From positions 15,911-79,910 of the IMG/VR virus record IMGVR_UViG_3300006056_000031: a stretch of 64,000 nucleotides of DNA. One strand, written 5' to 3'. Below are positions 11,031 through 63,052 of this stretch, one piece after another. Each line of letters opens with the position of its first letter. The first letter of the stretch is position 1. Source of the DNA: a virus (lineage: Duplodnaviria > Heunggongvirae > Uroviricota > Caudoviricetes). A program made the position numbers and the translations under genes. The notes under the pieces were generated by a model. It saw nothing but the letters and a program-made list of their open reading frames with translations, had not been told where the DNA came from and ran no database searches.

Positions 11031-12122
11031 ATGGAAAGAAAACTTGCAAGTATTAGAAAGATTAGTGATCTTCAACCAATCGAAGGTGCGGACCTTATAG
11101 AATTGGCAATTGTGGATGGATGGAAAGTTGTAGTAGCCAAAGAAGTTGGCCATAAGATTGGAGACTTTGTGATCTATTGCGAGGTTGATTCATTCCTCCC
11201 AATCCGCGAGGAATTTGAATTTCTTAGAAAAAGTTCGTACAGAAAGATAATCGATCAGGAGGGATTCAGACTTAAAACCATAAAATTAAGAGGACAAATT
11301 TCTCAGGGACTTATCCTTCCGCTTTCCATATTGGAAGGTGAAGAAGAGGACGAAAAACTTGGTCATCTAGAAACTCCTGATGGACCAATTTATCAATTAG
11401 GACCATATGAGTGGGCTCTTGTTATAGAGGAAGGTGCAGATGTTACCAACATGCTTGGTATTGTTAAATGGGATCCACCTATGCCTGCATGTCTGTCTGG
11501 TATAGCAAAGGGTAACTTTCCAAGCTGGGGGAGAAAAACTGACCAGGAGAGAGCACAGAATCTTGTTTCAGAGATTGGTTTGGAGCTATCAAATGATTCG
11601 AAATTTGAAATATCTATAAAATTGGATGGTACATCGATGTCAGTAGGAAAGAATGGTAGCGATATAGTAGTTTGTTCAAGAAATTTGATTCTTAATACTG
11701 AGCAGGAAGGAAATACTTTAATTGATGTTGCTAAATCTCTAGGATTGTTGGATAGAATTAGTGAATTTGGTGATATAATGATATCTGGGGAATTGTGTGG
11801 TCCTGGAATACAAGGGAATCGTGAAAAACTTGGTAAACATAAATTTTTTGTATTTGATATATTCGACGTTAGAAGTGGGGAATATATCAGTCCTGAAGAA
11901 AGAATAAAGATTGTAGAATCTTTGGGTTTAGATCATGTTCCAATTATTCATAAATCGGTAAAGCTTAATGAGATTGGATTAAATTCACTTGATGATATAT
12001 TAGCTTATGCAAACGGAGAATCCTTAAATTCGAAGATTAGAGAGGGACTAGTTTTTAAGAAGGTTGATGGATCTTTTAGCTTCAAGGCAATAAGTAACGA
12101 ATTTCTTCTTAAATTTGAGTGA
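11031..12122 (+). CDS. ATP-dependent RNA ligase (Rnl2/Rnl5-like nucleotidyltransferase) with N-terminal Myf/EMAP-like tRNA-binding OB domain
   Basis: Motif I KxDG (SIKLDGTSMSV). FVFDIFDV, ISGELCGPG and the motif-V-like EGLVFKKVDG are ordered as in the covalent nucleotidyltransferase ligases. The N-terminus (IRKISDLQPIEGADLIELAIVDGWKVVVAKEVGHKIGDFVIYCEVDSFLP) matches the tRNA-binding Myf-domain pattern. Confidence 0.7.
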   Translation: MERKLASIRKISDLQPIEGADLIELAIVDGWKVVVAKEVGHKIGDFVIYCEVDSFLPIREEFEFLRKSSYRKIIDQEGFRLKTIKLRGQISQGLILPLSILEGEEEDEKLGHLETPDGPIYQLGPYEWALVIEEGADVTNMLGIVKWDPPMPACLSGIAKGNFPSWGRKTDQERAQNLVSEIGLELSNDSKFEISIKLDGTSMSVGKNGSDIVVCSRNLILNTEQEGNTLIDVAKSLGLLDRISEFGDIMISGELCGPGIQGNREKLGKHKFFVFDIFDVRSGEYISPEERIKIVESLGLDHVPIIHKSVKLNEIGLNSLDDILAYANGESLNSKIREGLVFKKVDGSFSFKAISNEFLLKFE

Positions 12123-16913: not shown

Positions 16914-17267
16914 TTGAAAACTAAAGGACAAATTGAATTCTCAGAATTCTTAGAAATAGAAAATAGATTAGATATCCGCATAGGTCAAATCTTGACCGCT
17001 GAGCGTGTACCTAAGAGTGATAAACTTTTGAAGTTATCAGTTAAATTTGATATTGGGTTAGATGGGTTGCTAACGGTGGTTACGAATATTGGTGAAACCA
17101 GAACTCCAGAATCTTTAGTAGGTTTAACGATGCCATTTATCGTAAACCTTAAACCTTCAAAAATGATGGGTGTTACCAGTGAAGCTATGATTATAGTCGG
17201 TACTAGTCTTGAAGGTCAAATGCAAGTGGGATTAGACTACTTTGCTATCGGAACCAAAATACTTTAA
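16914..17267 (+). CDS. tRNA-binding domain protein (CsaA/EMAP/Myf fold)
   Basis: LDIRIGQILTAERVPKSDKLLKLSVKFDIG...LVGLTMPFIVNLKPSKMMGVTSEAMII matches the tRNA-binding OB domain consensus (I.G.I...E..P.SDKL..L.VD.G ... NLKP.K..G..S.GMi). Confidence 0.75.
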   Translation: MKTKGQIEFSEFLEIENRLDIRIGQILTAERVPKSDKLLKLSVKFDIGLDGLLTVVTNIGETRTPESLVGLTMPFIVNLKPSKMMGVTSEAMIIVGTSLEGQMQVGLDYFAIGTKIL

Positions 17268-17270
17268 ATT

Positions 17271-18014
17271 ATGCCAAAATTATATAAAGTTGGAGGCTGC
17301 GTTAGGGATGCTATCCTTGGTATTGATTCCAAGGATATAGACTTCACTTTCGTGCTAGATGATCTAAACCAAACTGTCGAGGAGGGATTCCAAAAAATGG
17401 ATGATTGGATGACTGAAAAAGGATTTGAGATATTTCTAAGAGTCCCAGAGATGTACACCATCCGTGCTAGATTTCATAAAGGAGATCCAAACGAGAAACT
17501 TGTTGCTGATTTTGTGATGGCAAGAAAGGAAATGGGATATAGCGACGATAGCAGAAGACCAGTGTTGAAACTAGGTACCTTGGCCGATGATCTTATTCGT
17601 AGAGATTTTACGATCAATGCAATGGCTGAGGACTCGGAAGGGAATCTAATTGATTTATTTGGTGGACAGGATGATCTGAGAATAGGAATACTAAGAACAC
17701 CTAAGCACCCGGATATAACATTCTACGAGGATCCACTACGATTACTTAGAGCACTTAGATTCACCATAACGAAGGATCTTGTTATGCATGATGACATCTG
17801 GGAAGCTATGAAGAACCCAGAATTACTCAAAAAACTAGAACTCACTGTTAGCGGGGAAAGAATTAGGGAGGAGATTTCTAAGATGATGAAACACGACACA
17901 GTTAGAGCAATCCTGCTAATAAAAGATTGCGATGAACACATGGGATTAGGGTACAAATTATTAAGAGTGCTATTTAAAAACGGTCTTTGGCTAAAACCAA
18001 CATTTGAGCAATGA
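17271..18014 (+). CDS. tRNA nucleotidyltransferase (CCA-adding enzyme) head/neck domain, lacking the HD domain
   Basis: LYKVGGCVRDAILGIDSKDIDF corresponds to the class-II CCA enzyme GGxVRD...D.D motif. RRDFTINAMAED...EDPLRLLRALRF matches the RRD.TINA and EDPLR..R..RF motifs. At 247 aa there is no room for a C-terminal HD domain. Confidence 0.8.
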   Translation: MPKLYKVGGCVRDAILGIDSKDIDFTFVLDDLNQTVEEGFQKMDDWMTEKGFEIFLRVPEMYTIRARFHKGDPNEKLVADFVMARKEMGYSDDSRRPVLKLGTLADDLIRRDFTINAMAEDSEGNLIDLFGGQDDLRIGILRTPKHPDITFYEDPLRLLRALRFTITKDLVMHDDIWEAMKNPELLKKLELTVSGERIREEISKMMKHDTVRAILLIKDCDEHMGLGYKLLRVLFKNGLWLKPTFEQ

Positions 18015-18283
18015 AAGGAAATCTTAAATTAGTAGATGGTGTTTGGATGATGTCATACGACAATCAAGAAATCCCTGTTGATTCGAGCAGCTTCATTAAA
18101 ATAAAATCAATGAATCACGACAACTCGCAGGAGTTTGAATTCGAAATAAGTCACCGCATGAGAGAATCATTCACAGAAATAGCGAATCGATGTATATCAT
18201 ACTGCGAAAGATCTGGCCCATGCGGATGTGACAGGTATTGGAAAAGCGAAGCAAATCACATAAAAACAGCAAAGCTACTATGA
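18011..18283 (+). CDS. hypothetical protein
   Basis: ORF of 90 aa with an ATGA overlap. Confidence 0.4.
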   Translation: MKGNLKLVDGVWMMSYDNQEIPVDSSSFIKIKSMNHDNSQEFEFEISHRMRESFTEIANRCISYCERSGPCGCDRYWKSEANHIKTAKLL

Positions 18284-19080
18284 GCGAGCCAATTAAAATT
18301 GTAACAGCCGGGCTATACGGTAAAAGTTCAAGCGATGATGCATTCAAAAAGATGCTGGAATCATGGAGTCCATTGGATTCATTGGGTGATGGAGAGCCGG
18401 AGGAGTTAACACAGGAGGAAATCAATGAGCGACAAGCCTATATTGAAGACACCAAGAATGGTTACTCTGAAGCTGCTATTCATAAAATTCTTAAAGATCT
18501 AAAAGTTGACGAACCGGTTCTCAACATATACAGATACGGAAGTCGAATCTACGGAACTGCTGATCAGAATTCGGATCACGATTACATTATAGTTACCAAG
18601 GGTGCTATGCTTAAGAGTGGTGCTTTTAAACAGAACGCCATCTCCAGTGAGAATCGTAACATCCAGGGGATTCTTTATTCAAGAAGTGGATTTACTGATG
18701 CTATCAACAACTATGACATCAGTGCTCTAGAATGTTTATCCCTACATCCCAACGATGTTCTTATGAGCACATGGCCATTCAAGGTTCAGAAGTGGGATAA
18801 TAAGGTGATGATCAAGAAGATCATATCTAAGGTTTCTGCATCATGGCACACTGCTGATATGCAGGCAAAGGATGGATTCAGAGATCGTGCTAAGAAAGGA
18901 ATTTTTCATGCACTTAGAATTCTACATTTCGCTTTGCAATTGAAGGTGAATCAAAGAATTGATGATTTCGGTTGTGTTAACTACATCTGGGAGGATTTTA
19001 AATTGATACCTGATGATGAATTTGACACCAGAGACTACATCAAGGAAAGAGATGAACTAATGGAACAATTGAGATCATGA
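18280..19080 (+). CDS. minimal nucleotidyltransferase (pol-beta superfamily) with possible C-terminal HEPN-like helical domain
   Basis: YRYGSRIYGTADQNSDHDYIIV gives the GS-x9-13-D-x-D NTase signature. The C-terminal RDRAKKGIFHALRIL fits an Rx4-6H HEPN-like pattern. Start moved to ATG 18280 (ATGA overlap). Confidence 0.55.
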   Translation: MSEPIKIVTAGLYGKSSSDDAFKKMLESWSPLDSLGDGEPEELTQEEINERQAYIEDTKNGYSEAAIHKILKDLKVDEPVLNIYRYGSRIYGTADQNSDHDYIIVTKGAMLKSGAFKQNAISSENRNIQGILYSRSGFTDAINNYDISALECLSLHPNDVLMSTWPFKVQKWDNKVMIKKIISKVSASWHTADMQAKDGFRDRAKKGIFHALRILHFALQLKVNQRIDDFGCVNYIWEDFKLIPDDEFDTRDYIKERDELMEQLRS

Positions 19081-19277
19081 ATCTAAAAGTTGGAGACAAG
19101 GTAATAAAAAATCCAGCCACGTGGATCGGTAGTGATTTTGATTCCTGGGGAGCAGGTGAGGGTGTGGGTGAGATTGTAGAGCCACCATTTGAACTCGATG
19201 AAACTGAAGTTGATGTGAGATGGCCGGAGGGAAGATGCTTCCAGAAAGCAAGTGAACTTATAAAGGTTGAGGAATGA
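19077..19277 (+). CDS. hypothetical protein
   Basis: ORF of 66 aa. Confidence 0.4.
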   Translation: MNLKVGDKVIKNPATWIGSDFDSWGAGEGVGEIVEPPFELDETEVDVRWPEGRCFQKASELIKVEE

Positions 19278-19504
19278 TAAGAATAGACGAGAAAAAGCTT
19301 GACAGATACTACCAGGAATACCTAAATGGTATTGCGGAGAATCCAGAGATTAGCCACAATTTGAAGGATCTAGCACCGGCAAATTGGTATAGCACCAATA
19401 TGGTTTCCTGCATATTTGCATCAATACTGGAAAGCAATTTCCACGATCTAGCAACATTAGATTTTGAAGTTAAATTTGAAACAATAAAAAATGAAAATAA
19501 CTGA
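19274..19504 (+). CDS. hypothetical protein
   Basis: ORF of 76 aa. Confidence 0.4.
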   Translation: MIRIDEKKLDRYYQEYLNGIAENPEISHNLKDLAPANWYSTNMVSCIFASILESNFHDLATLDFEVKFETIKNENN

Positions 19505-20300
19505 TCATATAGCAAAAGCCATACAGGAATATCCCTCTTTATATAAGGATGTGGATTATGAAAAATCCAAACTGAAAGTGCTAAACCATATATTCTTTAC
19601 TAATGGTAATGGATTAGAGATGGCAGAAACCGAGAATCCTGAGGATGGTGGATATGTTGTCCAGCCGAAACACAAGAAAGACAAGTTTGGAGATTGGAAA
19701 AGAATTAAGGATAAGCCATATGCTTCGGTAAAATATAAGAAAATACCAGATGGGTATTTTGAGAGTGTGGTTTATTATGTATATGGCAGCGGAGGACCAC
19801 TGGAAACTCTACACAGAAAGGATGGCCATGGCGGTTCCGATACTTTATTCAGATACGAAAAAACCGACAGGGAATACCAAAAACCTAGACTTTATGAGGC
19901 CGAATCCAGATCGAATTTTTCACCTTATCCATTGAGTAAAGGCTATGCTCTTGCATGTGACATTTTCTACGAGAATCAATTTCTGCAAGAGGATTGGATG
20001 GCGGAGCTTGTTATTTTGTGCGAGAGAACTCTTGAGTATTTTAATAATCATGAATATCTCGATCATGTTTACTATCCAAGTGATGGACGTGTTGGTAGCG
20101 ATCTAAGAGCATTCAACGAGAAATTTGAAAATTCTGGTATAAAGGGAGTAAACGAATTAAGAAAAATCTGGGGATATGAAGCAAAGGAAACGCCAGTTGA
20201 TCGTGATGAAGTACTAGAGAAGAAGAAAAAATCTTGGGAAAAATTTAAAAATGAGCAGATTAGTTTTTTAACTAAATTTCTAAAAAAATATAAAAAATAG
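19491..20300 (+). CDS. hypothetical protein
   Basis: ORF of 269 aa. Confidence 0.5.
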   Translation: MKITDHIAKAIQEYPSLYKDVDYEKSKLKVLNHIFFTNGNGLEMAETENPEDGGYVVQPKHKKDKFGDWKRIKDKPYASVKYKKIPDGYFESVVYYVYGSGGPLETLHRKDGHGGSDTLFRYEKTDREYQKPRLYEAESRSNFSPYPLSKGYALACDIFYENQFLQEDWMAELVILCERTLEYFNNHEYLDHVYYPSDGRVGSDLRAFNEKFENSGIKGVNELRKIWGYEAKETPVDRDEVLEKKKKSWEKFKNEQISFLTKFLKKYKK

Positions 20301-20301
20301 A

Positions 20302-20550
20302 ATGAGAATAAAAGCAATTTATAAAAAAAACCTGAAAATGCCAGAGGGAAAAGTGGCATCACAGGTTGCACATGCAGTTAAGAATCTTGGTATCACACCA
20401 ATCGATTCGGTGATAGTTGTTCTTGCAGTTTCCAATAAGAAATTTGCGGAACTTGTTGCTGAGCACCCAAACTGTTATGTACAAACCGATCTTGGTTTAA
20501 CCTGCGTGGAAAGTGGTACACGTACTGCTGCTGCATGGATAGAAGAATAA
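20302..20550 (+). CDS. peptidyl-tRNA hydrolase, PTH2 family (compact)
   Basis: LKMPEGKVASQVAHAV matches the PTH2 motif (L.MgkGKiAAQc.HAa). YVQTDLGLTCVESGTRTAAAWI corresponds to the PTH2 C-terminal motif D.G.TqI..GS.TvlAigP. Confidence 0.65.
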   Translation: MRIKAIYKKNLKMPEGKVASQVAHAVKNLGITPIDSVIVVLAVSNKKFAELVAEHPNCYVQTDLGLTCVESGTRTAAAWIEE

Positions 20551-20553
20551 ATT

Positions 20554-21000
20554 ATGACGAATAAAGTTAACATAAACAACAGAAAAGCAAAGTTTGATTA
20601 CGAGTTCATTAGAACTCTAACCGCTGGAATGCAGTTAATGGGTTCGGAAGTAAAGGCTATCAGAGATGGTAGAGTTTCATTTGTTGATTCCTACTGTTAT
20701 TTCAATGGAAAGGAACTTTTTCTGAAGAATCTAAACATTACACCAATATCCTCGACATATACACACGAGCCAAACAGAGAAAGAAAATTACTTCTTAATA
20801 GAAGTGAACTTAAAAAGTTACAGAATGACATGGATAGAGGAATGACTATAGTTCCATTCCGAATTTTTACTAATGAGAAGGGTTTGATTAAATTGGATAT
20901 TGCTCTTGCGAGGGGAAAGAAGACCTATGATAAAAAGAAAAAAATAAGGGAGGAGGATATAGAGAGGGATACGAAAAGATCCATCGCCGGGGATATATAG
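20554..21000 (+). CDS. smpB: SsrA-binding protein SmpB
   Basis: AKFDYEFIRTLTAGMQLMGSEVKAIRDGRVSFVDSYCYF...ELFL.N..ITP..........ERKLLLNRSELKKL....DRGMTIVPFRIF.NEKGLIKLDIALARGKKTYDKKKKIREEDIER is collinear with the SmpB family over its full length. Confidence 0.8.
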   Translation: MTNKVNINNRKAKFDYEFIRTLTAGMQLMGSEVKAIRDGRVSFVDSYCYFNGKELFLKNLNITPISSTYTHEPNRERKLLLNRSELKKLQNDMDRGMTIVPFRIFTNEKGLIKLDIALARGKKTYDKKKKIREEDIERDTKRSIAGDI

Positions 21001-21019
21001 GTATAAAAATGTACCTAAT

Positions 21020-22054
21020 ATGAGATACGATAAAAAATATTTGATTAATTATCTAATAGAAAATTATAGCAAAAAGAGCAAATCTGAAATAATCAATGAA
21101 CTTGGTCTTTCCTGGTCATATTTACAAAGAATAGCATCATTAAATGGTATAAAGAGGGAATTTTCGGAAAATAAAAATGTAGGTAAATATTCGATACTAA
21201 CAAACTATGATGATATAACAAGTTGTTATTGGTTGGGATTTATGCTAGCTGATGGTAACATAAGCAAAAAAAATAATATGATGCTTAATTTAGCAATAAA
21301 GGATAAAGATCATATACTCAAAATAGAAGATCATGTTGGGAAAACTAGCGTTTATTATCAAAATGATAATATAATAAGGGTTGTTTTAAATGACTCCGGA
21401 ACATTTAGAAAAATAGCATCCGATTTTGAATGGAAAACAAACAAAACTAAAAATCCACCAGTCCTACCAGAATCAATGCAGCAAGATTGTATATTTTCGA
21501 TGGTTGTTGGATTTATTGATGGCGATGGATGCATTGACGAAAGACATGGACTCGCCGTTAAATGCGATGGCTCGTGGCAAGACATGCTTAATTATTTTTA
21601 TTTGATATTAACAGGAGATTCTAAAAAATATCAAATTGATAATAATGGATATTCAATATTTCGCATAGGAAACATGATAAAACTAAAGGATATAAAGAAA
21701 AAAATTATTGAGCTTAATATTCCGGCTATGGATAGAAAGTGGGATAAAGTGGATATTAACAGGATATACAAATCGGAGAAAGAATCTATTATTTCAGAGA
21801 TGCTAAATAATGGAAATAATATGAATGCAATATTGGAAAAAACAGGATTTAGTAAAACCTTATATTATTCAGTTGCAAATAAGAAAGGTGTAAATATAAG
21901 AAAAAATAAAATATCCAATGATCAATTCATGTCAATAGTAACAATGTACAACAATGGAATTAATCCGTCAGAGATGTCCAGATCTATTGAATTGAGTATA
22001 TCCACAATATATAGGCAGATTAAAAAATATAAAGCAACTAAAAGAAGTTTATAA
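21020..22054 (+). CDS. LAGLIDADG homing endonuclease (two-motif, monomeric type)
   Basis: Two LAGLIDADG motifs: CYWLGFMLADGNIS and FSMVVGFIDGDGCID. Confidence 0.75.
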   Translation: MRYDKKYLINYLIENYSKKSKSEIINELGLSWSYLQRIASLNGIKREFSENKNVGKYSILTNYDDITSCYWLGFMLADGNISKKNNMMLNLAIKDKDHILKIEDHVGKTSVYYQNDNIIRVVLNDSGTFRKIASDFEWKTNKTKNPPVLPESMQQDCIFSMVVGFIDGDGCIDERHGLAVKCDGSWQDMLNYFYLILTGDSKKYQIDNNGYSIFRIGNMIKLKDIKKKIIELNIPAMDRKWDKVDINRIYKSEKESIISEMLNNGNNMNAILEKTGFSKTLYYSVANKKGVNIRKNKISNDQFMSIVTMYNNGINPSEMSRSIELSISTIYRQIKKYKATKRSL

Positions 22055-22311
22055 TGGAAAGAGTTGAAATGAGGGATAAGACGAATAGATCAAATCCAAA
22101 AATTGAGACGCCAGCAAATTCTGGTAAAAAATCACATAAGTATCCGCCATCTAACAAGGAAATGGTATCACTTGGCTCTTCCGGACCTACTGGTATTCCT
22201 GGTCCTTCGGGAATAAATGGATTCGGAGATATGTCATCAGGTTCAGTAAAGATTGGAAAAACTGCTAAAAAGGTGAAAAATTGGGATACTTCATTTAATG
22301 ATTTTTTCTAA
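22054..22311 (+). CDS. hypothetical Gly-rich (collagen-like) small protein
   Basis: 85 aa with GSSGPTGIPGPSGINGFG Gly-X-Y-like triplets. Confidence 0.4.
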   Translation: MERVEMRDKTNRSNPKIETPANSGKKSHKYPPSNKEMVSLGSSGPTGIPGPSGINGFGDMSSGSVKIGKTAKKVKNWDTSFNDFF

Positions 22312-22604
22312 TGAAAGAATCATTAAAAGACCTTTCATTACCATTAATCTTTGTCGGGATCCCAATATTGGTTCTAGGACTTATTATAGTGCTGCATACG
22401 GAACCAAATAGATATGTGGGTACTGTAATGAAGGTAAGCAGTTGGGATGGAGCAGCGAGCTTAAAAACAAAGAATAAGAAGGGTAAGGATACCATCATCG
22501 AGGTCAAACCAAGAAGATCTGAAAGATTCACAGAAGGGCAGGTAATTACTGTTTGGACTGGCGGTGATTTAGTAGGTGGAATAGCAACAACAAATCCACA
22601 ATAA
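22311..22604 (+). CDS. hypothetical membrane-anchored protein
   Basis: 97 aa. N-terminal TM segment LSLPLIFVGIPILVLGLIIVL. Confidence 0.4.
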   Translation: MKESLKDLSLPLIFVGIPILVLGLIIVLHTEPNRYVGTVMKVSSWDGAASLKTKNKKGKDTIIEVKPRRSERFTEGQVITVWTGGDLVGGIATTNPQ

Positions 22605-22607
22605 CAA

Positions 22608-23105
22608 ATGAAAAATATAATGAGACAAGACATACTAGATATTAAAAAAATAGCAATAGAAACTTTTGTCATGGACAAGGATTCCATCCATGGGATTCAA
22701 CATTGGGATGAGGTCTATGGGAATGGCATGATGTTATCACAACAGCTGGGAGTTGACCAATTAGTTGTTGGTCTTTTTGCATACCTACATGATTGCAAAA
22801 GGGAAGATGATCATCAGGATCCTGAACATGGTGACAGAGCTGCTGATTTTGTGGTTTTTTTAAGAAACAGCGGAAAGTTGGAATTCCTAGAACATAGCCA
22901 ATATATCCAGCTATGGAAAGCCTGCTTACAACACCACAAGGGTGTAGTTGACATCGAGGACATCACAATAGGTGCCTGCTTTGATGCTGACAGAATAGAG
23001 CTAATCCGATGTGGTATAGTACCCAGGGTTGAACTAATGAGTACACCAATGGGAATTAGAATAGCACAGAAAATGAAAGAATTACAAACATTTAAAGGAC
23101 ATTAA
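22608..23105 (+). CDS. HD-domain phosphohydrolase (resembles the HD domain of bacterial CCA-adding enzymes)
   Basis: IHGIQHWDEV...LFAYLHDCKRED...HGDRAADF gives an H...HD...D metal-binding pattern. It aligns with the E. coli Cca HD region (IDTGIHTL...ATLCHDLGK). Confidence 0.55.
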   Translation: MKNIMRQDILDIKKIAIETFVMDKDSIHGIQHWDEVYGNGMMLSQQLGVDQLVVGLFAYLHDCKREDDHQDPEHGDRAADFVVFLRNSGKLEFLEHSQYIQLWKACLQHHKGVVDIEDITIGACFDADRIELIRCGIVPRVELMSTPMGIRIAQKMKELQTFKGH

Positions 23106-23106
23106 T

Positions 23107-23286
23107 ATGAAAAAATATAGAATAAGAGTACTGTTGAATAATGGACAATCAATATCATATTTTGCTGTAGACACGGCCATAAAAGGAGAACTTACTGAAA
23201 TTGGCGATAACCATTACCGCTTTAGAGACGACAATGGGAGGTTTAGCTACTATCCAATCGTTAACACAATAGTGGAGGAACAATAA
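23107..23286 (+). CDS. hypothetical small protein (59 aa)
   Basis: ATG two nt after the upstream stop; TAATG overlap with the next ORF. Below the track cutoff. Confidence 0.35.
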   Translation: MKKYRIRVLLNNGQSISYFAVDTAIKGELTEIGDNHYRFRDDNGRFSYYPIVNTIVEEQ

Positions 23287-23519
23287 TGGCAAAGTTATAT
23301 GATGCTGTAGGAATCGCAAGGAAAAAAGGTAGAAGCACCAAAACTACCAGGGAGGGCAACAGACTATTTGATAGCCTGGATATGGCAATCATCAAACATG
23401 ATGAGGCGGTACATAATGCCCAATTAAAAAGAGGTGAAATTGAAAAAGGTATAAAACATAAGATCTATGCTTGCGGGTGTGGTGGTTCAGGATGTTGCTT
23501 ACATGTTGAAATTAAATAA
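23286..23519 (+). CDS. hypothetical protein
   Basis: 77 aa with a C-terminal CGCGGSGCC. Confidence 0.4.
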   Translation: MAKLYDAVGIARKKGRSTKTTREGNRLFDSLDMAIIKHDEAVHNAQLKRGEIEKGIKHKIYACGCGGSGCCLHVEIK

Positions 23520-23526
23520 AAAAATC

Positions 23527-23844
23527 ATGGCAAAATATTTAGGAGAGGTTGAGGTAGGGATGGAAGATCCAGGAAATCCATACACTGGATTTGGAATCAA
23601 AGATTGGATGTTTGAGTTCATCGAGAGATACGGATCGATTGACGGTGCACACCACAAGGATTGGGTAATGAACCAATGTACAAAAATCTATCACGGAACA
23701 CCGGTTATGATTAGATTGGCATCATGGGATAATGGAGAAACCGAATACAGAATAAATCTTGGCGAGGATTCAGAAGCATATAAAAAATATGTAGAGGAGA
23801 CGGAGGAAGCAGGTTATGAGGTGGAAGAGGGAATTGCTCCATAA
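23527..23844 (+). CDS. hypothetical protein
   Basis: Start moved to the in-frame ATG at 23527 (MAKYLGEV...) to avoid overlap with the upstream ORF. Followed by a promoter box. Confidence 0.45.
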   Translation: MAKYLGEVEVGMEDPGNPYTGFGIKDWMFEFIERYGSIDGAHHKDWVMNQCTKIYHGTPVMIRLASWDNGETEYRINLGEDSEAYKKYVEETEEAGYEVEEGIAP

Positions 23845-23850
23845 ATATTT

Positions 23851-23886
23851 TTTTATCTCGAAATATTTTATTATATTTGCGATATA
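23851..23886 (+). promoter_or_regulatory. phage promoter (-7 box 23872-23880)
   Basis: ttttatctcgaaatattttattatatttgcgatataaaaa. Confidence 0.55.
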
Positions 23887-23899
23887 AAAATAAAAGAAC

Positions 23900-24484
23900 A
23901 TGGATTTGACAACCTACGTAGACTGGTGCATAGCACAACACGATAATACCAACCACATGTATGACAAATATTTGCCATATTCTTTCCATTTAAGAATGGT
24001 TGATAGAGCAGCACAACAATTCGAGCATCTTTTGGATGATACGAAAGACATGCAAACTGGTAAATCTAGAGAGATCCTGGATGGAAATAGATTAGGATTC
24101 GTTTCTCTTAGAATGGCTTGTAGAAAAGCTGGCTGGGGACATGATACAATCGAGGACACCAGAACATCATATAATGACGCAGTTAACCATCTTGGTAAAG
24201 ATGCAGCTGATATTGTTTATGCTGTTACTAACGAGAAAGGTAAGAATCGTTCGGAAAGAGCTAATGACAAATACTACGAGGGAATAGTAGCAACACCAGG
24301 AGCGGTTTTCGTTAAGCTTTGCGATCGTATTGCTAATGTTCAGTATGGTAAAATGACAGGAAGTGGTATGTACGACAAGTACAAAAAAGAGAATGCTAAC
24401 TTTATTACCAAGCTTGGTGGCGATGATAAGGATCATAAATTAGCTCCAATGTTCGAATATTTATTAAACCTTTTTAAAGACTAA
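23900..24484 (+). CDS. small alarmone hydrolase (Mesh1/SpoT-type HD-domain (p)ppGpp hydrolase)
   Basis: RMACRKAGWGHDTIEDT...AVNHLGKDAADIVYAVTNEKG...KLCDRIANV matches the SpoT/RelA hydrolase-domain signature HDxxED(T) and its flanking helices. Its 194 aa is typical of single-domain SAH enzymes. Confidence 0.65.
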   Translation: MDLTTYVDWCIAQHDNTNHMYDKYLPYSFHLRMVDRAAQQFEHLLDDTKDMQTGKSREILDGNRLGFVSLRMACRKAGWGHDTIEDTRTSYNDAVNHLGKDAADIVYAVTNEKGKNRSERANDKYYEGIVATPGAVFVKLCDRIANVQYGKMTGSGMYDKYKKENANFITKLGGDDKDHKLAPMFEYLLNLFKD

Positions 24485-25384: not shown

Positions 25385-25849
25385 ATGAATAGATTTATAG
25401 CGATTTTTCTCCTTTTCTTGTGTGCTTCTGGGTACAGTCAAAATAGAAGCCACATCACCAGAAATAGAAAACCTTTGACCTCCATCGGATCAATTAAGAT
25501 TGGTTCCGATATTGAATCTGTCGATGTCAACTTAGAAAATTTTGTTCCTGTTGAATCCGAGTTTGTGGAGATCTATAGAATCGATAACTATCCTTTTACT
25601 AAAAATATCATATTAAGTAATCTATATTTAAAATTTTATAAGCGTAAATTGGTTGAGATAATTCTCGATTTTAATCAGCAGTATAGCGATTATATAGGAT
25701 ATCTCCAGAGAACTGAATATTCAGATAGACCTAATGGTGAGATTGTGATAACATATAACACTTTTACTCCTGGTATTATATTCAGATCATTTCTAAATGG
25801 TGATCGGAAAGATTCAATGATAATGTGCATTGAAAATTATCAGGAATAA
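25385..25849 (+). CDS. hypothetical secreted protein/lipoprotein
   Basis: 154 aa. Signal-peptide-like N-terminus MNRFIAIFLLFLCASGYSQ (a Cys near the cleavage region suggests a lipobox). Confidence 0.5.
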   Translation: MNRFIAIFLLFLCASGYSQNRSHITRNRKPLTSIGSIKIGSDIESVDVNLENFVPVESEFVEIYRIDNYPFTKNIILSNLYLKFYKRKLVEIILDFNQQYSDYIGYLQRTEYSDRPNGEIVITYNTFTPGIIFRSFLNGDRKDSMIMCIENYQE

Positions 25850-25865
25850 ATTCATTTTTATTTTT

Positions 25866-25900
25866 TTATTCCGGAATAATTTCATATATTTGCAATGTAA
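25866..25900 (+). promoter_or_regulatory. phage promoter (-7 box 25885-25893); upstream element is the perfect palindrome TTATTCCGGAATAA
   Basis: ttattccggaataatttcatatatttgcaatgtaa. Confidence 0.55.
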
Positions 25901-25912
25901 TTAATAATAGGA

Positions 25913-26161
25913 ATGGCAAAGAATAAGGAACAGGCGGAGAGATACAAAGCAGAAGGACTTAGACGAATGCTTGCTAGAAAAAAGCAAAGGTTCGAAAAGT
26001 ACAGAACACTTGCTATCGAAGCTAGTAATTTAGGAATTCCTTTAGCAGGTGCAAGACTTGGAGGATCCTGGCCAGACCCAGATTCACCAACAGGATATTC
26101 ACAGAAATGCTCATATGAGGTATGGGGAACATGTCAATCACCTTGTAATGGTGATTGTTAA
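25913..26161 (+). CDS. hypothetical basic protein
   Basis: 82 aa, Arg/Lys-rich at the N-terminus and Cys-rich at the C-terminus. Downstream of promoter box 25885-25893. Confidence 0.45.
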   Translation: MAKNKEQAERYKAEGLRRMLARKKQRFEKYRTLAIEASNLGIPLAGARLGGSWPDPDSPTGYSQKCSYEVWGTCQSPCNGDC

Positions 26162-26168
26162 TAAGATT

Positions 26169-26225
26169 TGGGATATAGCTTAGTGGTAGAGCTTTACAGC
26201 GGAGGTTCAATTCCTTCTATCCCGA
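26169..26225 (+). tRNA. tRNA-like element lacking an anticodon arm (about 57 nt; acceptor + D arm + T arm only); possible tRNA pseudogene or anticodon-less tRNA mimic
   Basis: The acceptor stem TGGGATA/TATCCCG, a canonical D arm (GCTTAGTGGTAGAGC) and a T arm (GGAGG-TTCAATT-CCTTC) are contiguous. Only 8 nt lie between the D and T arms. Confidence 0.4.
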
Positions 26226-26424
26226 CAAAGCAGTTTTTATTGTGCATCTCCATCGGACGAGAACATTGTTTTAGATTTAAAAACAAGGTTAATAGGACCG
26301 GGTAGTTTAAAAGTTTTCCTAGCCTTAAGGAAAAGTAAGGGTGGTTTTGCAGATGACAGTTTCCTAACCTAGTGGAAAAGTCGGTATAATAGGGAAATCG
26401 GTCGGCTTTAACCGATTCCCAACA

Positions 26425-26548
26425 GGGGGAATAGACCAACGGTATGGTACATCTCTAACTTACATCATAGATAGAATCTATGACGTCTTCACACAAAGGC
26501 GAAGTTTAGCTGATTCAAGTGTCACAGGTTCGATTCCTGTTTCCCCCA
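26425..26548 (+). tRNA. tRNA-like gene, oversized (about 124 nt) between D arm and T arm
   Basis: Perfect acceptor pairing GGGGGAA/TTCCCCC. T arm ACAGG-TTCGATT-CCTGT at 26524-26540. A 3-bp D stem of the type-II kind. The interior contains a 7-bp/3-nt-loop hairpin (26466-26482), but no canonical 5+7+5 anticodon arm could be placed by eye. Confidence 0.4.
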
Positions 26549-26735
26549 CTAGCCACGTCACTGTAAGCTGCAGTGATAACTGGACACGAAATAAGGTGGT
26601 TCCGCGGATCACTAACGAAATCGTCTGAGGTAGAGTCCGAGTCCAGGGTTAAAACATAAAGAGTCTACTACATAACGAGGCGCCAAATTAATCTCGACAT
26701 GTACTGTCTGGCAGGTCAGACTAGGCTCTTTAAAC

Positions 26736-26812
26736 GATTGGAAATAGCTTGATTGTGGCGCGACGCCTATTGGGAGCAGTGGTAAAAATGGGTTCGAATC
26801 CTGTTCCAATCA
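26736..26812 (+). tRNA. tRNA gene (77 nt; isotype undetermined)
   Basis: Acceptor GATTGGA/TCCAATC. T arm ATGGG-TTCGAAT-CCTGT at 26788-26804. Total length is canonical. The D and anticodon arms are not cleanly assignable by eye. Confidence 0.55.
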
Positions 26813-26896
26813 CGAAACACGTAAAACGCAAACGCACGGGCCCTAGATGCATAAGGTGAGGCGCACCCCGTATACTGGATGACCTCTGTTTTTAAC

Positions 26897-27003
26897 GACC
26901 AGAATGCAGGGATGGAACCCTGCACATTAGAAAGTTCCTATAAAGCAATGGTTGATGTCGTGGAGCTTTGACATTAACTGCGGGTTCGATTCCTGCACTG
27001 GTC
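26897..27003 (+). tRNA. tRNA-like gene, oversized (about 107 nt)
   Basis: Acceptor GACCAGA/ACTGGTC (6 of 7 bp). T arm GCGGG-TTCGATT-CCTGC at 26979-26995. A 7-bp interior hairpin at 26903-26922. Confidence 0.35.
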
Positions 27004-27016
27004 ACAAATGCAAATG

Positions 27017-27083
27017 GGGAGATATGCTTAAAGTCACGTGGAGGTAAAGCAATAAGATTGGAGGTTCGAGTCCTTCTCTCTCC
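27017..27083 (+). tRNA. tRNA-like gene (short, about 67 nt)
   Basis: T arm GGAGG-TTCGAGT-CCTTC at 27059-27075. 3' acceptor TCTCTCC pairs with GGAGATA at 27017-27023 (6 of 7 bp). Confidence 0.35.
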
Positions 27084-27298
27084 ACAAAAAGAAAATGTTC
27101 TTCGTGGTGAATGAACGGTATTTTATAGGATGGACGCATTGGTAATAGTTGGGTAAGGAGAGAACTGCAGTGGGCTGCTGCACTACACCTCAAGAAAAAT
27201 CGCAAGATAAAACTGCCAATTTAGATAGAAAGAACTAAGCCATCCAATAAAATGCCAAAGAAACAATTTTAAAATAATTGTTATTGTTATTTTTTTAA

Positions 27299-27340
27299 TC
27301 CGAATTATTATCATATATTTGTGTGATAATTCGGATTTTT
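27299..27340 (+). promoter_or_regulatory. phage promoter (-7 box 27313-27320) embedded in the loop of a 12-bp inverted repeat
   Basis: AATCCGAATTAT-tatcatatatttgtgtg-ATAATTCGGATT. The stem arms flank the TATATTTG box. Confidence 0.5.
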
Positions 27341-27357
27341 AATTTAAAAATAAACTC

Positions 27358-27579
27358 ATGACACCAGAAACATTAAAGGAGGCTAAGGATTTCAGAAGAA
27401 GTACCGGAATAATGGCAATAGTTCTTTGGACTTTTATGCCATTCTTCGTTTACCTATCGGATTCGAAATCAATTGATATCACAGTACTTATTTCAATTGG
27501 AGCGATAGTACTCACATTCATCTACTTCAAAATGAATGGTCTAATTAAGAAATACGAGAGGATATCAGATGGAAAATAA
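27358..27579 (+). CDS. hypothetical membrane protein
   Basis: 73 aa with two hydrophobic segments. Downstream of promoter box 27313-27320. Confidence 0.45.
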   Translation: MTPETLKEAKDFRRSTGIMAIVLWTFMPFFVYLSDSKSIDITVLISIGAIVLTFIYFKMNGLIKKYERISDGK

Positions 27580-60518: not shown

Positions 60519-61340
60519 ATGAGCATCTTTAAAAAAGGTAAATTAAGTAAGCCAGAATTCATCTCGAAGATGATTGGCACAGTCATCTCGCTTTTGGCAT
60601 TTGGCTTCATGTGGACGGTAGAGTTCCCAGGTGACACGGTAAAGGACAACGGATCCTTAAGTTTTTCGGCAATGCACACAACATTCAACATTGCTTTCTT
60701 GGTGGGCTTATTTGTCTATATCGTTATTCTAATGAGAAAGTCATTGGACCAGAATTTGGAATGGGATTTTAGAGAATCTAATGACGGCGATAAAAATCCA
60801 TTCGGAAGCGTAGCAGGTTTATTGGTTCTATTGCTTTTAGTTATTGGGCTGAGCCGATTCTATAAAGATTCAAAAGTCATCTATAATCAAACAGTTCTAT
60901 ATCAAAATGATTATGCTCAAGTGAGCCAAGAGAAAGAAACATACTACGACAACATGTGGAAATCTTATACACTTAAACATAATGTGCTAATCGAAAATAA
61001 ACAAACTTTTATCGAGATAACTAAGATGATCATGGATGGAAGACGTGATGGTGAAAAACTTACGTGGAAATGGTTACAAGAAAATCAACCAATACCATAT
61101 AGTGAATTTAGCAGCTTCTATGCTGACCTATCACAATTCGTAGAAACACAAAGAGCTGGATATTTAGCTTTAGAAGTGAAGTCACAGAACATCGCAAAAG
61201 CTAATAATATATTGCTACAGACTTTCCCGAACAATGTATATAATAGGGTTTTGAAAAGATCTCAGATTGATTACAAACCTGGATTTAGTTCAACAAAAAC
61301 TAAGAATGTGTTCCAAACAGGGATAGAAGATATTGAATAA
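60519..61340 (+). CDS. membrane-anchored protein, paralog family B
   Basis: Two N-terminal TM segments. The C-terminal 150 aa are collinear with the 54114 ORF (YDNMWKSYT ... IMDGRRDGEKLTWKWLQENQPIPYSEFSSFYADLS ... QRAGY ... FP ... YKPGFSSTKTKNVFQTG). Confidence 0.5.
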   Translation: MSIFKKGKLSKPEFISKMIGTVISLLAFGFMWTVEFPGDTVKDNGSLSFSAMHTTFNIAFLVGLFVYIVILMRKSLDQNLEWDFRESNDGDKNPFGSVAGLLVLLLLVIGLSRFYKDSKVIYNQTVLYQNDYAQVSQEKETYYDNMWKSYTLKHNVLIENKQTFIEITKMIMDGRRDGEKLTWKWLQENQPIPYSEFSSFYADLSQFVETQRAGYLALEVKSQNIAKANNILLQTFPNNVYNRVLKRSQIDYKPGFSSTKTKNVFQTGIEDIE

Positions 61341-61344
61341 AAAT

Positions 61345-61372
61345 AAAACCAGAGTTTAAGCTCTGGTTTAAA
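61345..61372 (+). terminator. rho-independent terminator
   Basis: AAACCAGAG-tttaag-CTCTGGTTTAAAT. Weak T tail. Confidence 0.5.
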
Positions 61373-61403
61373 TGGTCCTTCAACTTAATACGATTCGGCA
61401 ATC

Positions 61404-61802
61404 GTGTCAGCCTCTAAAACTGATGTAACGTGTTCGATGCACGGTGGGATCACAAAAAACATAACGATGAAAGAATATTCATGGAAAACAGCTCTAGGAG
61501 AAACTAAAAAATTCTCGGAAATAGATCATCAGCACCTATCGAATATACTTTGGTTCAGAGAGATTTTAACAGGAGCTAATTTTTGTAACTGTGAGGTTCA
61601 AAGGCTTTTAAATTCTGAACTAAAAAGAAGATTCAAAGGGGAGAGATTGCCATGGAAGCCATTACCAATTCCAAATGAGATAGATTGGATAAGAAAGGCG
61701 GCTTACATAAACAGTAAAGGTGAAATAATAGGAACAATGAAAACACCATCACATTACGGTAGAGTTATTGGATCTATTGCTCATATAGAAAAACTCAATT
61801 AG
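61404..61802 (+). CDS. hypothetical protein
   Basis: ORF of 132 aa. Confidence 0.45.
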   Translation: MSASKTDVTCSMHGGITKNITMKEYSWKTALGETKKFSEIDHQHLSNILWFREILTGANFCNCEVQRLLNSELKRRFKGERLPWKPLPIPNEIDWIRKAAYINSKGEIIGTMKTPSHYGRVIGSIAHIEKLN

Positions 61803-61881
61803 CGGAGAGTAGGGGAAACCCAAAAATAGCTAAGCTGTGTAAAGCGACAGAACTGATAATCTGTTAGAAGCTAGGTTGGAT

Positions 61882-62030
61882 GGCGGAAAGCTTATAATGG
61901 AAGAAATTCTATTACAGCAAGGAAGACGCTATATTAGAGAAAGGACGCACTGGATTTGGAAACCCAGTTAGCGACAGTGGAAGAATCAACGCTCTAATTA
62001 CCATTGTGGGTTCGAATCCCACTTCAGCCA
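61882..62030 (+). tRNA. tRNA-like gene, strongly oversized (about 149 nt), tentative
   Basis: T arm GTGGG-TTCGAAT-CCCAC at 62006-62022. 3' acceptor TTCAGCC pairs with GGCGGAA at 61882-61888 (6 of 7 bp). The interior contains an anticodon-like hairpin near 61847-61866 outside this span, so the boundaries are uncertain. Confidence 0.3.
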
Positions 62031-62050
62031 CTAATAAAAATATAAAAATA

Positions 62051-62557
62051 ATGAAAAAAGCATTGATTGCATTAGCTTTAATATTAGCGATAAATTCAAT
62101 ATATTCGCAAGATAATAAAGTAATTATTGAAAATTGCACCAACAAGTCTCAACTTTATGGACCAAGTGGTGTAATCTGTTCAAATATTGATAGAACAAAG
62201 TGGTTCACATTAAAACCAAACTACTTATTAGATGGTGATAGATTGTCTTGCCATGGCCTTATAGTAATTAAATCAAACATTGGTGGTCCGAGTAAAAAAT
62301 GCCAATTGGTATTTTCATTTAGCGATGGAAGTAAATTAAGACTGAAACCTGAGGAGGAATCAAAAACTGGGAACATTTTTTATTTTAAATTAACCGAATT
62401 AGAATTCATAATTTTAAAAAGTAAAAAAATTAATCACGCTAGATACATTAACGGAATTGATAATATCTCGTTCCAATATAAAATGGGTGAGGAAGAAAAA
62501 AATTACTATGTAAATTTGTTTACTAATTATCATATTCAAAAAATGTACTGTGAATAA
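62051..62557 (+). CDS. hypothetical secreted protein
   Basis: Start moved to MKKALIALALILAINSIYSQD (signal peptide). The longer ORF from 62006 would overlap the tRNA-like T arm. Confidence 0.45.
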   Translation: MKKALIALALILAINSIYSQDNKVIIENCTNKSQLYGPSGVICSNIDRTKWFTLKPNYLLDGDRLSCHGLIVIKSNIGGPSKKCQLVFSFSDGSKLRLKPEEESKTGNIFYFKLTELEFIILKSKKINHARYINGIDNISFQYKMGEEEKNYYVNLFTNYHIQKMYCE

Positions 62558-62559
62558 AT

Positions 62560-62662
62560 GGGTAGTTGGCGAATTGGCTAACGCAAAGGGTTAGTTTATA
62601 TCGGTAACAAATCAAGGTATAAATGAGTCCCTCATACGCAGGTTCGAATCCTGTACTACCCA
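62560..62662 (+). tRNA. type-II (Leu/Ser-like) tRNA-like gene with enlarged anticodon region (103 nt)
   Basis: Acceptor GGGTAGT/ACTACCC. D arm TGGCGAATTGGCTAACGCA is nearly identical in layout to bacterial tRNA-Leu. Variable-arm hairpin ATGAG-TCC-CTCAT. T arm GCAGG-TTCGAAT-CCTGT. The anticodon region is about 18 nt longer than canonical and no 5/7/5 arm fits. Confidence 0.5.
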
Positions 62663-62906
62663 CAAATCAGCGATGTTAACTACTCTGTGGTATCTACGGA
62701 GTGCTAGGAGTAAACCTAGAAACTTGCTTAGGTAAGTTAAGGATTAAATGAGTTACAGTTCGGATTTGAACCTTAAAAAAGCTAATGCTTTAATGACATG
62801 TAGATTCAGAATAGCTTATACTATTTAGGTACCTGAACCATTCAAAGAAGTCTTAGCAGATGATGATATTTTTTAGCCAAGGCGGAAATTTTTTGATTCA
62901 CTATTT

Positions 62907-62999
62907 GGTCAGATTGGACATAAGGTCGGTTCGAGTCCGATGGAAGGTCATGGATGTCGGGTAGCTCCCTGTAGGAAGGTTCGATTCCTTCCCTGACTG
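62907..62999 (+). tRNA. tRNA-like gene (about 93 nt) with duplicated T-arm-like hairpins
   Basis: T arm GGAAGG-TTCGATT-CCTTCC at 62974-62992. 3' CTGACT pairs with GGTCAG at 62907-62912. A second T-arm-like hairpin GTCGG-TTCGAGT-CCGAT sits at 62926-62942. Confidence 0.35.
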
Positions 63000-63015
63000 C
63001 GGCGCTTTTTCGTAC

Positions 63016-63052
63016 TTTAGTTTAGATATATAAAATAAACTAAAGTATAGAA
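63016..63052 (+). promoter_or_regulatory. 10-bp inverted repeat immediately upstream of the GIY-YIG gene start (possible regulatory hairpin)
   Basis: CTTTAGTTTA-gatatataaaa-TAAACTAAAG, ending 4 nt before ATG 63053. Confidence 0.35.

Follow-up and report, generated by a model that had tools for sequence, protein, structure and literature searches.

What can a cluster of tRNA-like sequences do for a phage when none of its members is able to read a codon? This question is raised by a block located at positions 26162-27357 of a stretch of viral DNA (IMG/VR record IMGVR_UViG_3300006056_000031, Caudoviricetes); hereafter, the window designates this whole stretch of 64,000 nucleotides. The original prediction had described five plus-strand T-arm elements with paired acceptor halves in this untranslated region and had considered that they might be decaying pseudo-tRNAs, tRNAs with short introns or anticodon-less mimics. 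Our analysis indicates that the block is not a decoding tRNA gene cluster: no element among the five (E1 to E5) can read a codon, since the anticodon arm is lost or replaced in all of them. Furthermore, sequence comparisons identify E1 as a member of a strongly conserved RNA family and not as a decaying gene, and we infer that it is the dedicated partner of a small protein encoded immediately upstream.

The existence of the five elements and the untranslated nature of the block were both confirmed. The block contains no credible open reading frame (ORF), and its longest minus-strand ORF does not survive in a relative, where a 1-nt indel disrupts it. In the 64-kb window, 10 copies of the T-arm motif GGTTCRANTCC are found versus 0.22 expected. 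Five plus-strand copies lie in the block (26204, 26527, 26791, 26983 and 27063); the remaining five belong to a second block around 62-63 kb. Explicit pairing showed that each copy in the first block is accompanied by a 7-nt 3' acceptor half and a matching 5' half, so that in E1-E5 the 7-bp acceptor stem stacks on a T arm made of a 5-bp stem and a UUCRANU T-loop. Ordinary tRNAs at other boundaries were sought with covariance models and ARAGORN, and none was found. ARAGORN reports 0 tRNA or tmRNA genes in the entire window, and the Rfam tRNA model (RF00005, gathering score 29) matches E1, E2 and E5 at exactly the boundaries first proposed. At a permissive threshold (E<=10), the tRNA model and noise were the only Rfam matches in the block and in the second cluster; no intron family matches in the block. 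The Rfam alignments of E1, E2 and E5 and the lack of any ARAGORN gene indicate that the anticodon arm with its 7-nt loop is missing or replaced. The order along the block is small-protein ORF, E1, S1, E2, S2, E3, E4, E5 and S5, S1, S2 and S5 being the spacers, and the block as a whole is more conserved than the flanking genes.

For E1, the proposal of acceptor, D and T arms at 26169..26225 with 8 nt instead of an anticodon arm was borne out by the Rfam tRNA model, which scores 43.6 bits at those boundaries and finds 1 nt where 15 anticodon-arm model positions belong. Its pair 1:72 is U.G and CCA is not encoded. DNA around homologues of the small protein was taken from viral, metagenome and genome collections (loci labelled L001, L002, etc.) and yielded at least 30 distinct E1 sequences of 56-61 nt from uncultivated phages. 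In the alignment of 30 sequences, standard pairs occupy 95.2% of helix cells versus 73.8 +/- 1.3 in shuffles, and compensatory changes are found at 12 of the 16 helix pairs. Double-change cells number 94, versus 25.6 +/- 3.9 in shuffles (0/500 shuffles as high) and at most 17 in slid controls; the shuffle control ignores phylogeny, whereas the slid controls and the perfect 15:48 covariation are independent of it. Six of the seven acceptor pairs covary, as does the T stem. Moreover, U8 and A14 are invariant (30/30) and the tertiary pair 15:48 is G-C in 24 sequences, A-U in six and discordant in none. Therefore, the L-shaped tRNA core itself is under selection. The linker between D stem and T stem, 8-9 nt long and mostly U-rich, corresponds to position 26, 2-3 additional nt and a 5-nt variable loop.

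At the acceptor end, pair 1:72 is unusual, being unpaired in 13 of 30 sequences and G-C in only two. Pairs 2:71 to 7:66 are near-universally paired (four never break; 3:70 and 5:68 show one break each in 30). N73 is A in 24 sequences and otherwise G or C, C74 comes next in 29/30 and CCA is unencoded in the family. No acceptor identity set is conserved, a G.U at 3:70 being found in 1/30. With the covariance model R1, derived from the alignment, E1 is the sole true member in the window, at 68 bits by construction since it belongs to the training set; E5 comes next with 32.9 bits. Among loci outside the training set, R1 gives a single top match behind the small gene in L018, L030 and L081. We found no description of this RNA family in Rfam or in the searchable literature, where anticodon-less tRNA-like phage RNAs were looked for.

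The partner of E1 belongs to a family of small proteins with 20 homologues among 5.8 billion protein clusters. An exhaustive profile search retrieved 59 representative clusters, including two spurious ones; P0060 and P0070, which are long low-complexity repeat proteins, were rejected as artefacts. True members have about 55-120 aa and an N-terminus that is variable but basic. Their C-terminus is near-invariant in homologue alignments (W.D..SPTGY(S/T)Q.C...G.C(Q/H).PCNGDC) and ends at the stop codon; that of the window protein reads W.D..SPTGYSQKCSY..WGTCQSPCNGDC and is followed by the stop. AlphaFold2 (AF2) predicts a helix over residues 2-40, with a stripe formed by R18/R22/R26/Y30 (R18 and R26 invariant, R22 and Y30 at least 90% conserved), and a C-terminus with a low predicted local distance difference test score (pLDDT). 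Profile searches gave no match in Pfam, PHROGs, NCBIfam, PADLOC or PDB, tblastn gave none in 50,697 GenBank phages and the C-terminal motif is absent from the searchable literature.

The linkage between this gene and E1 is strict. Among loci that reach past the gene and lack an intervening ORF, an E1-type element begins 2-13 nt after the ...PCNGDC stop in 30/30 distinct loci; in the window, the distance is 7 nt. In L018 and L004, one ORF is inserted after the small gene, yet the RNA element is still present. In L001, a close relative, the small gene and E1 are both missing and the sequence resumes exactly at S1. In L005, the protein has the same basic N-terminus and a different Cys-rich C-terminus, and the RNA still lies 3 nt past the stop. 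Because of this strict coupling, of the joint loss and of the link to the basic N-terminus despite a differing C-terminus, E1 and the small protein are considered here as a putative protein-RNA pair.

The RNA is the sole invariant neighbour of the small-protein gene, and other neighbours recur in some phages only. For instance, L013, L014 and L018 have an SmpB gene that overlaps the small gene or lies immediately upstream of it, and SmpB is found nearby in L003, L057 and L074. In the L013 clade, the pair is flanked by Thg1, two RNA ligases and YqeY. RlaP is found near the pair in L019, a TROVE/Ro60 gene within 3 kb of it in L015, a genuine tmRNA 600 nt downstream in L016 and canonical tRNA arrays around it in L007, L015 and L019. 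Downstream of E1 in L013 (3370-3420), and also in L014, a tRNA 5' half (GGCGTGGTAGCTCAGGCGGTTAGAGCGTCGGATTCA...) is followed by unrelated sequence with an ORF start; an intron or a homing element may have split the anticodon loop of a tRNA gene there. The original prediction had overlooked the E1/small-gene coupling, as well as the fact that the 'spacers' are structured and conserved.

The other four elements are more heterogeneous, and their D arm and core tertiary pairs are degenerate or unclear. E2 reaches 31.4 bits with the Rfam tRNA model, with 67 nt where 17 model positions belong, and a fold z-score of -2.7. In relatives, both E2 and E4 preserve their acceptor and T arms through compensatory changes. 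In L011 and L047, the E2 acceptor pair A7-U66 is replaced by G7-C66 (GGGGGAG/CUCCCCC), and the L016 acceptor is entirely different yet paired. The 67-nt insert is found in the window, L001 and L002; E2 of L011, L047 and L016 carries instead an extended arm of 39 nt, which comprises an internal loop (AGUA/GAA) and a hairpin capped by UUCG, with a U-A to C-G change in this hairpin between L011 and L047. E3 had been singled out as the only element of canonical length; the length holds, but the cloverleaf does not, as E3 has no Rfam match at E<=10 and scores 12 bits with R1. The acceptor of E4 is kept by compensatory changes in L001 (GGCCAGA/ACUGGCC), L047 (GGUCAGA/ACUGAUC) and L003 (GGUCAGU/ACUGACC), and its length varies from 108 to 140 nt among relatives (140 nt in L003). 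An alternative 55-nt reading of E4, with GGUUGAU as the 5' half, was dropped, the 108-nt form having Watson-Crick compensatory changes in three relatives. Lengths of 107-124 nt had been proposed for the remaining elements; these agree with E2 (124 nt) and E4 (108 nt) but not with E5 (69 nt).

E5 scores 29.3 bits with the Rfam tRNA model, with 3 nt for the anticodon arm and an oversized D loop. The combination of G3.U70 and A73 that it carries is the alanine identity common to tRNA-Ala and tmRNA. No insert of any element would leave, after excision, a 7-nt anticodon loop with U33 (U33-NNN-R37 type); those of E2 and of an element of the second cluster (62560-62662) fold as extended arms with hairpin caps.

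No part of the block is better conserved than the spacers. S1, S2 and S5 share 89-92% nucleotide identity between the window and L011 or L047, versus 61-78% for the small ORF, a 154-aa ORF and the downstream 73-aa ORF in the same comparison. Each adopts a closed multi-helix consensus fold with some compensatory pairs; for instance, two closing-helix pairs of S5 change from GC to AU. None matches an Rfam family, and the three spacers look like new structured phage RNAs. A complementarity between S1 and S5 (GCAGUUUUUAU / AUAAAACUGC) spotted by eye is not kept in L011 or L047. The content of the array varies among relatives: E3-E5 are missing from L002 and E3 from L047, and in L003 E1 is followed by modules found in the second cluster of the window genome. 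In L047 (3704-4007), the two S2 domains are split by an insertion of about 300 nt. Since this insertion carries its own tRNA-like element (GGUUUGG/CCAAACC, about 160 nt), it suggests that modules bearing tRNA-like elements move or recombine within arrays. The coordinates of all these features are given in Table 1.

Table 1. Location and characteristics of the tRNA-like elements, spacers, signals and genes discussed in the text (window coordinates, except for the L016 tmRNA)
Feature	Position	Strand	Length	Characteristics
Promoter-like sequence	25860..25895	+		T-run, palindrome TTATTCCGGAATAA and TCATATATTTG; upstream of the small ORF; read from sequence
Small-protein gene	25913..26161	+	82 aa	Basic N-terminal helix; conserved, putative partner of E1
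E1	26169..26225	+	57 nt	Acceptor 7/7 pairs, D arm with G18G19, 8-nt linker UUUACAGC, T arm, A73, C74
S1	26226..26424	+	199 nt	Structured, non-coding; 89-92% identity to L011/L047; RNAalifold fold with 4 compensatory pairs
E2	26425..26548	+	124 nt	Acceptor GGGGGAA/UUCCCCC 7/7, weak D arm, T arm; anticodon arm replaced by a structured 67-nt insert
S2	26549..26735	+	187 nt	Two-domain, structured, non-coding
E3	26736..26812	+	77 nt	Acceptor GAUUGGA/UCCAAUC 7/7, T arm; no cloverleaf core
E4	26897..27004	+	108 nt	Acceptor GACCAGA/ACUGGUC 6/7, 5' hairpin GCAGGG-AUGGAA-CCCUGC, internal hairpin, T arm
E5	27016..27084	+	69 nt	Acceptor 7/7; no anticodon arm; 5-bp stem with 17-nt loop at the D-arm position; G3.U70, A73
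S5	27085..27262	+		Structured RNA closing the array; in all relatives; 89% identity to L047
AT-rich hairpin	27262..27296	+		AACAATT-TTAAAAT-AATTGTT followed by T7; read from sequence
tRNA-like element, second cluster	61375-61453			Rough cloverleaf fold, CUA in a 9-nt loop
tRNA-like element, second cluster	61979-62030			Weak score
tRNA-like element, second cluster	62560-62662		103 nt	Rfam tRNA 48.1 bits; full cloverleaf, 'anticodon loop' being an extended arm of about 40 nt
tRNA-like element, second cluster	~62899-62999			T-arm motif present twice (62928, 62978); 62955-62999 may be a 45-nt mini form
RNA ligase gene	11031-12122			
tRNA-binding-domain protein gene	16914-17267	+		Pfam tRNA_bind 7.6e-16
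CCA-adding/poly(A) polymerase-family nucleotidyltransferase gene	17271-18014	+		Pfam PolyA_pol 8.3e-19
Pth2-like ORF	20302-20550		82 aa	Weak Pth2 match; precedes SmpB
Phage SmpB gene	20554-21000	+		Pfam SmpB E = 3e-45
tmRNA of locus L016	3028-3495 (L016)			Genuine phage tmRNA; Rfam 76.7 bits, G3.U70, candidate tag ending ...VAVAA

What, then, could such a block produce? The acceptor/T-arm coaxial helix is present in every element, and a D-loop/T-loop elbow is found in E1 and less clearly in E2, E4 and E5. These are the parts of a tRNA that are recognised by RNase P, RNase Z and CCA-adding enzymes. A common 3' trailer (N73, then CAAA or similar) follows E1, E4 and E5, as well as the 62560-62662 element and the genuine tmRNA of L016. 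Because the elements keep the features used by these three enzymes while the decoding part is missing or variable, and because several of them share this trailer, we favour, at roughly even chances, the explanation that the block is a co-transcribed and processed array; in this explanation, the coupling described above makes E1 the partner of the small protein in a ribonucleoprotein (RNP). A single transcription unit of about 1.4 kb would begin at the promoter-like site (about 25.88 kb) and end with the AT-rich hairpin and its T-run (about 27.29 kb). Host tRNA-processing enzymes would cut at each tRNA-like element, and the phage CCA enzyme may complete the 3' ends. Three kinds of products would result: a small-protein mRNA ending a few nt past its stop codon, stable 57-124-nt tRNA mimics devoid of an anticodon, and the conserved structured RNAs S1, S2 and S5. 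The N-terminal helix of the protein, with its arginine stripe, most likely binds E1 to form a small RNP, which would act within the phage module for tRNA-end maintenance and ribosome rescue.

The proposed limits of this unit were examined. The motif TCATATATTTG matches at 25882 and 27311, the near-identical promoter-like motif being found again at 27296-27325, immediately beyond the block. It may correspond to a Bacteroidota-type promoter (TAnnTTTG); a sigma-70 scan was uninformative for this region. The AT-rich hairpin with its T7 is a possible terminator of the array; it was not called by a terminator scan, which requires 3 G-C pairs. Inverted repeats at 25868-25881 (TTATTCCGGAATAA) and 27298-27338 (AATCCGAATTATTATCA...TGATAATTCGGATT) surround the TCATATATTTG motif, and those of the two promoter-like regions could be operator sites. 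The 27298-27338 repeat region also gave a spurious miRNA match in Rfam.

Arrays of this kind have precedents. The tRNA cluster of phage T4 includes the stable 'species 1/2' RNAs. As proposed here, these are small non-tRNA RNAs that are co-transcribed and co-processed with a phage tRNA array, but the T4 array consists mainly of real decoding tRNAs. A similar arrangement of tRNA-like modules is found in the tRNA-like/miRNA units of gammaherpesvirus MHV68. With the YrlA Y RNAs (PMC4201824), E1 shares a non-decoding mimicry of the acceptor, D and T arms, a dedicated protein and an association with RNA repair/decay genes, including the TROVE/Ro60 gene near the pair in L015. However, YrlA is permuted, ends in a Ro-binding stem and has Ro60 as a partner, whereas E1 ends in its acceptor stem. 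No Y RNA was matched by Rfam in the block or the window.

Several observations weigh against the processed array with its RNP. The acceptor sequence and pair 1:72 of E1 vary and give no pointer to a specific enzyme partner. AF2 yields no confident fold for the invariant C-terminus of the protein. Single-sequence fold energies of E1, E3 and E5 are no better than those of shuffles (z = -0.9 to -1.25), as is usual for tRNAs, so that the evidence for these three folds is comparative only; moreover, homologues of E3 and E5 are found only in the near-identical L001, which leaves their structures without covariation support. The single-sequence minimum free energy structure of E4 is an extended alternative fold (z = -6.5); the tRNA-like fold is nevertheless favoured because its local hairpins covary between the window and L047. 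Finally, the tight gene-RNA linkage could reflect a purely cis-acting role at the 3' end of the mRNA and not an RNP.

Among the alternatives, an unlikely but serious one is that the mimics are decoys, which would accumulate and soak up a host factor recognising the top half or elbow of tRNAs (toxins modifying the acceptor end, tRNA-cleaving defence nucleases or host SmpB). The G3.U70 and A73 of E5 fit such a role, as do the many tRNA-end repair functions encoded nearby, among them two HD-domain proteins. However, E1 lacks G3.U70 (1/30 in the family) and has a normal D stem, unlike the tRNA-like domain (TLD) of tmRNA; titration of SmpB would be self-defeating for a phage that encodes its own; elements devoid of an anticodon loop offer no substrate to anticodon nucleases; and a simple decoy leaves the invariant coupling with the small protein unexplained. 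The suggestion of anticodon-less mimics made in the original prediction survives insofar as covariation and the missing anticodon arm point to selected, non-decoding, tRNA-shaped RNAs.

The precedent for an action on SmpB is the 'TLD-only' RNA of mycobacteriophage DS6A, proposed to act on host SmpB (PMC4131195). The TLD of tmRNA with SmpB is also the closest functional analogy for E1. In both cases, an acceptor and a T arm are found without an anticodon arm and a small basic protein fills (or, for E1, would fill) the space of the missing arm; these systems are phage-encoded in some cases, SmpB genes adjoin the pair in several phages and E5 has the G3.U70/A73 alanine identity. In contrast, E1 has a regular D stem, no G3.U70 and no P2 helix, pseudoknot or tag frame, and its partner is unrelated to SmpB. 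The tmRNA model RF00023 finds only a 17-nt T-arm match (10.7 bits). By analogy, the protein and E1 might together constitute a chimeric tRNA, in which E1 would contribute the elbow and the acceptor/T-arm part and a basic protein helix of about 60 Angstrom would replace the anticodon arm, as SmpB does for tmRNA, and allow codon-free entry in the A site or in another tRNA-binding machine; we consider this improbable. If true, it would be a second, independently evolved protein-RNA tRNA mimic, by which phages would rescue, stall or reprogramme host ribosomes.

It is equally improbable that E1 acts purely in cis, as a signal for 3'-end formation, stability or translation coupling of the small-protein mRNA, the released RNA being functionless. 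RNase P cleavage upstream of mascRNA forms the 3' end of MALAT1 (PMC8457004), and the constant 2-13-nt distance to the stop codon fits a comparable role here; the joint loss of gene and RNA in L001 would be equally expected. However, a canonical tRNA or a minihelix would suffice for this purpose. In 30 lineages, the D arm and the 15:48 pair are conserved while the anticodon arm alone is absent, which indicates selection acting on the folded RNA and not just on a site of cleavage. The arrangement resembles that of mascRNA/MALAT1, in which a non-decoding tRNA-like structure directly follows a functional RNA; tRNA processing makes the ends there, as it would here, and a small CCA-tailed mimic is released. 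Unlike the block, mascRNA and the MHV68 units are eukaryotic or viral nuclear RNAs with a reduced anticodon stem; the RNA upstream of E1 is the mRNA of a co-evolving protein, and its cleavage is predicted.

The conservation of the spacers could also mean that S1, S2 and S5 are domains of a single large ornate RNA of the GOLLD/ROOL kind, with the tRNA-like elements as passengers in its linkers. GOLLD and ROOL are conserved, elaborate phage non-coding RNAs found near tRNA islands, the GOLLD linker sometimes holding tRNAs (PMC12286853), an arrangement that S1, S2 and S5 share; moreover, they are the best-conserved sequences and elements come and go between them. We nevertheless hold a single ornate RNA to be very improbable. 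The models RF01998 and RF03087 give no match at E<=10 in 25800-27500 and none at gathering score in the window, nor does any other large RNA of Rfam match at E<=10. Compared with GOLLD/ROOL, these domains are smaller (170-200 nt), and each folds on its own, their joint consensus fold containing no real inter-domain helix (5 U-A pairs of 156). Furthermore, a single ornate RNA leaves unexplained the E1-protein pair in phages without S1, S2 and S5.

The chance is slimmer still that E1 is an amino-acid carrier which, once charged, would modify the small peptide by passing its amino acid on to the Cys-rich C-terminus, in the manner of aminoacyl-tRNA-dependent ribosomally synthesised and post-translationally modified peptides (RiPPs). 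The protein does resemble a leader helix followed by an invariant Cys/Ser/Thr-rich 'core', left disordered by AF2, and the RNA retains only the acceptor-bearing half of a tRNA. However, E1 shows no conserved acceptor identity elements, pairs 3:70 to 7:66 varying freely and N73 being A, G or C; no LanB/PEARL-, Fem- or cyclodipeptide-synthase-like gene is conserved beside the pair; and an invariant 'core' with a variable 'leader' is the opposite of typical RiPP precursors.

Least probable of all are intron-bearing precursor tRNAs or decaying pseudogenes, both put forward in the original prediction: a phage RNA ligase, a CCA enzyme and frequent homing endonucleases in the window would suit them, but E1 and E5 have no anticodon stem, no insert restores a U33 loop and no Rfam intron family matches, and the covariation and tertiary pairs of E1, the compensatory changes of E2 and E4 and a conservation above that of the flanking genes exclude decay. 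A hidden tmRNA was also rejected, as the block resembles the genuine tmRNA of L016 only in the T arm and contains neither a tag-like frame nor an acceptor partner for a long-range TLD. The elements of the block lack defining features of the tmRNA, GOLLD/ROOL, intron-tRNA and Y RNA families.

Aberrant tRNA-like elements are not restricted to this block. A second non-coding cluster at 61340-63050 of the window carries further ones (Table 1), and, past 62662, the sequence shows homology to the modules located after E1 in L003. A GTG-start ORF listed at 62006-62557 opens inside a T-arm motif (62009); its real start is probably an ATG near 62052, which would give a signal-peptide-like N-terminus (MKKALIALALILAINS). 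In other phages, 22 viral contigs (L020-L042) carry another anticodon-arm-less class of about 59 nt, with a C-UUGG-GUCG linker, on ordinary-sized phage contigs without the small protein (for instance, L026 2231-2289, L033 1899-1958 and L036 1390-1448). These sequences score 42-64 bits with R1, and several have G3.U70 and A73. Armless tRNA mimics may be widespread in phages and overlooked by tRNA finders. The tmRNA of L016, which lies 20 nt past an E2-like, 90-nt tRNA-like element, was not called by ARAGORN either.

The closest relatives of the window genome are uncultivated viral contigs of 430 and 434 kb, and no DNA-level match to the block or to 14 kb surrounding it was found in GenBank phages. 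The window encodes a fragment of a Gp23-type capsid protein and homing endonucleases, the latter being frequent across it. Genes related to tRNAs and ribosome rescue form a dense island at 16914-24484, with tRNA_bind, CCA/PolyA_pol, nucleotidyltransferase, Pth2-like, SmpB, HDIG and HD proteins, broken up by a LAGLIDADG endonuclease gene (21020-22054). One of the two HD-domain proteins of the window has a weak similarity to SpoT/RelA hydrolases. No tmRNA was found in the window, although an SmpB gene is present. The window ORFs scanned contain no detectable TROVE domain, and tblastn detected in the window neither Thg1, YqeY and RlaP nor any further neighbours of the pair that were taken as queries from other phages.

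Non-decoding tRNA mimics known so far include the TLD of tmRNA, Y RNAs (PMC4201824), mascRNA (PMC8457004) and viral tRNA-like structures. We came across no published family that combines a precisely missing anticodon arm, retained tertiary pairs of the tRNA core and a tie to its own small-protein gene over dozens of phage lineages. The system is compact, with 57 nt and 82 aa in the window. Standard tRNA finders, here ARAGORN, overlook such elements entirely. Furthermore, the 'spacers' of tRNA-like arrays in huge phages can surpass all other structured RNAs of the locus in conservation. The pair formed by E1 and the small protein probably belongs to the toolkit by which large phages take over or protect host translation.

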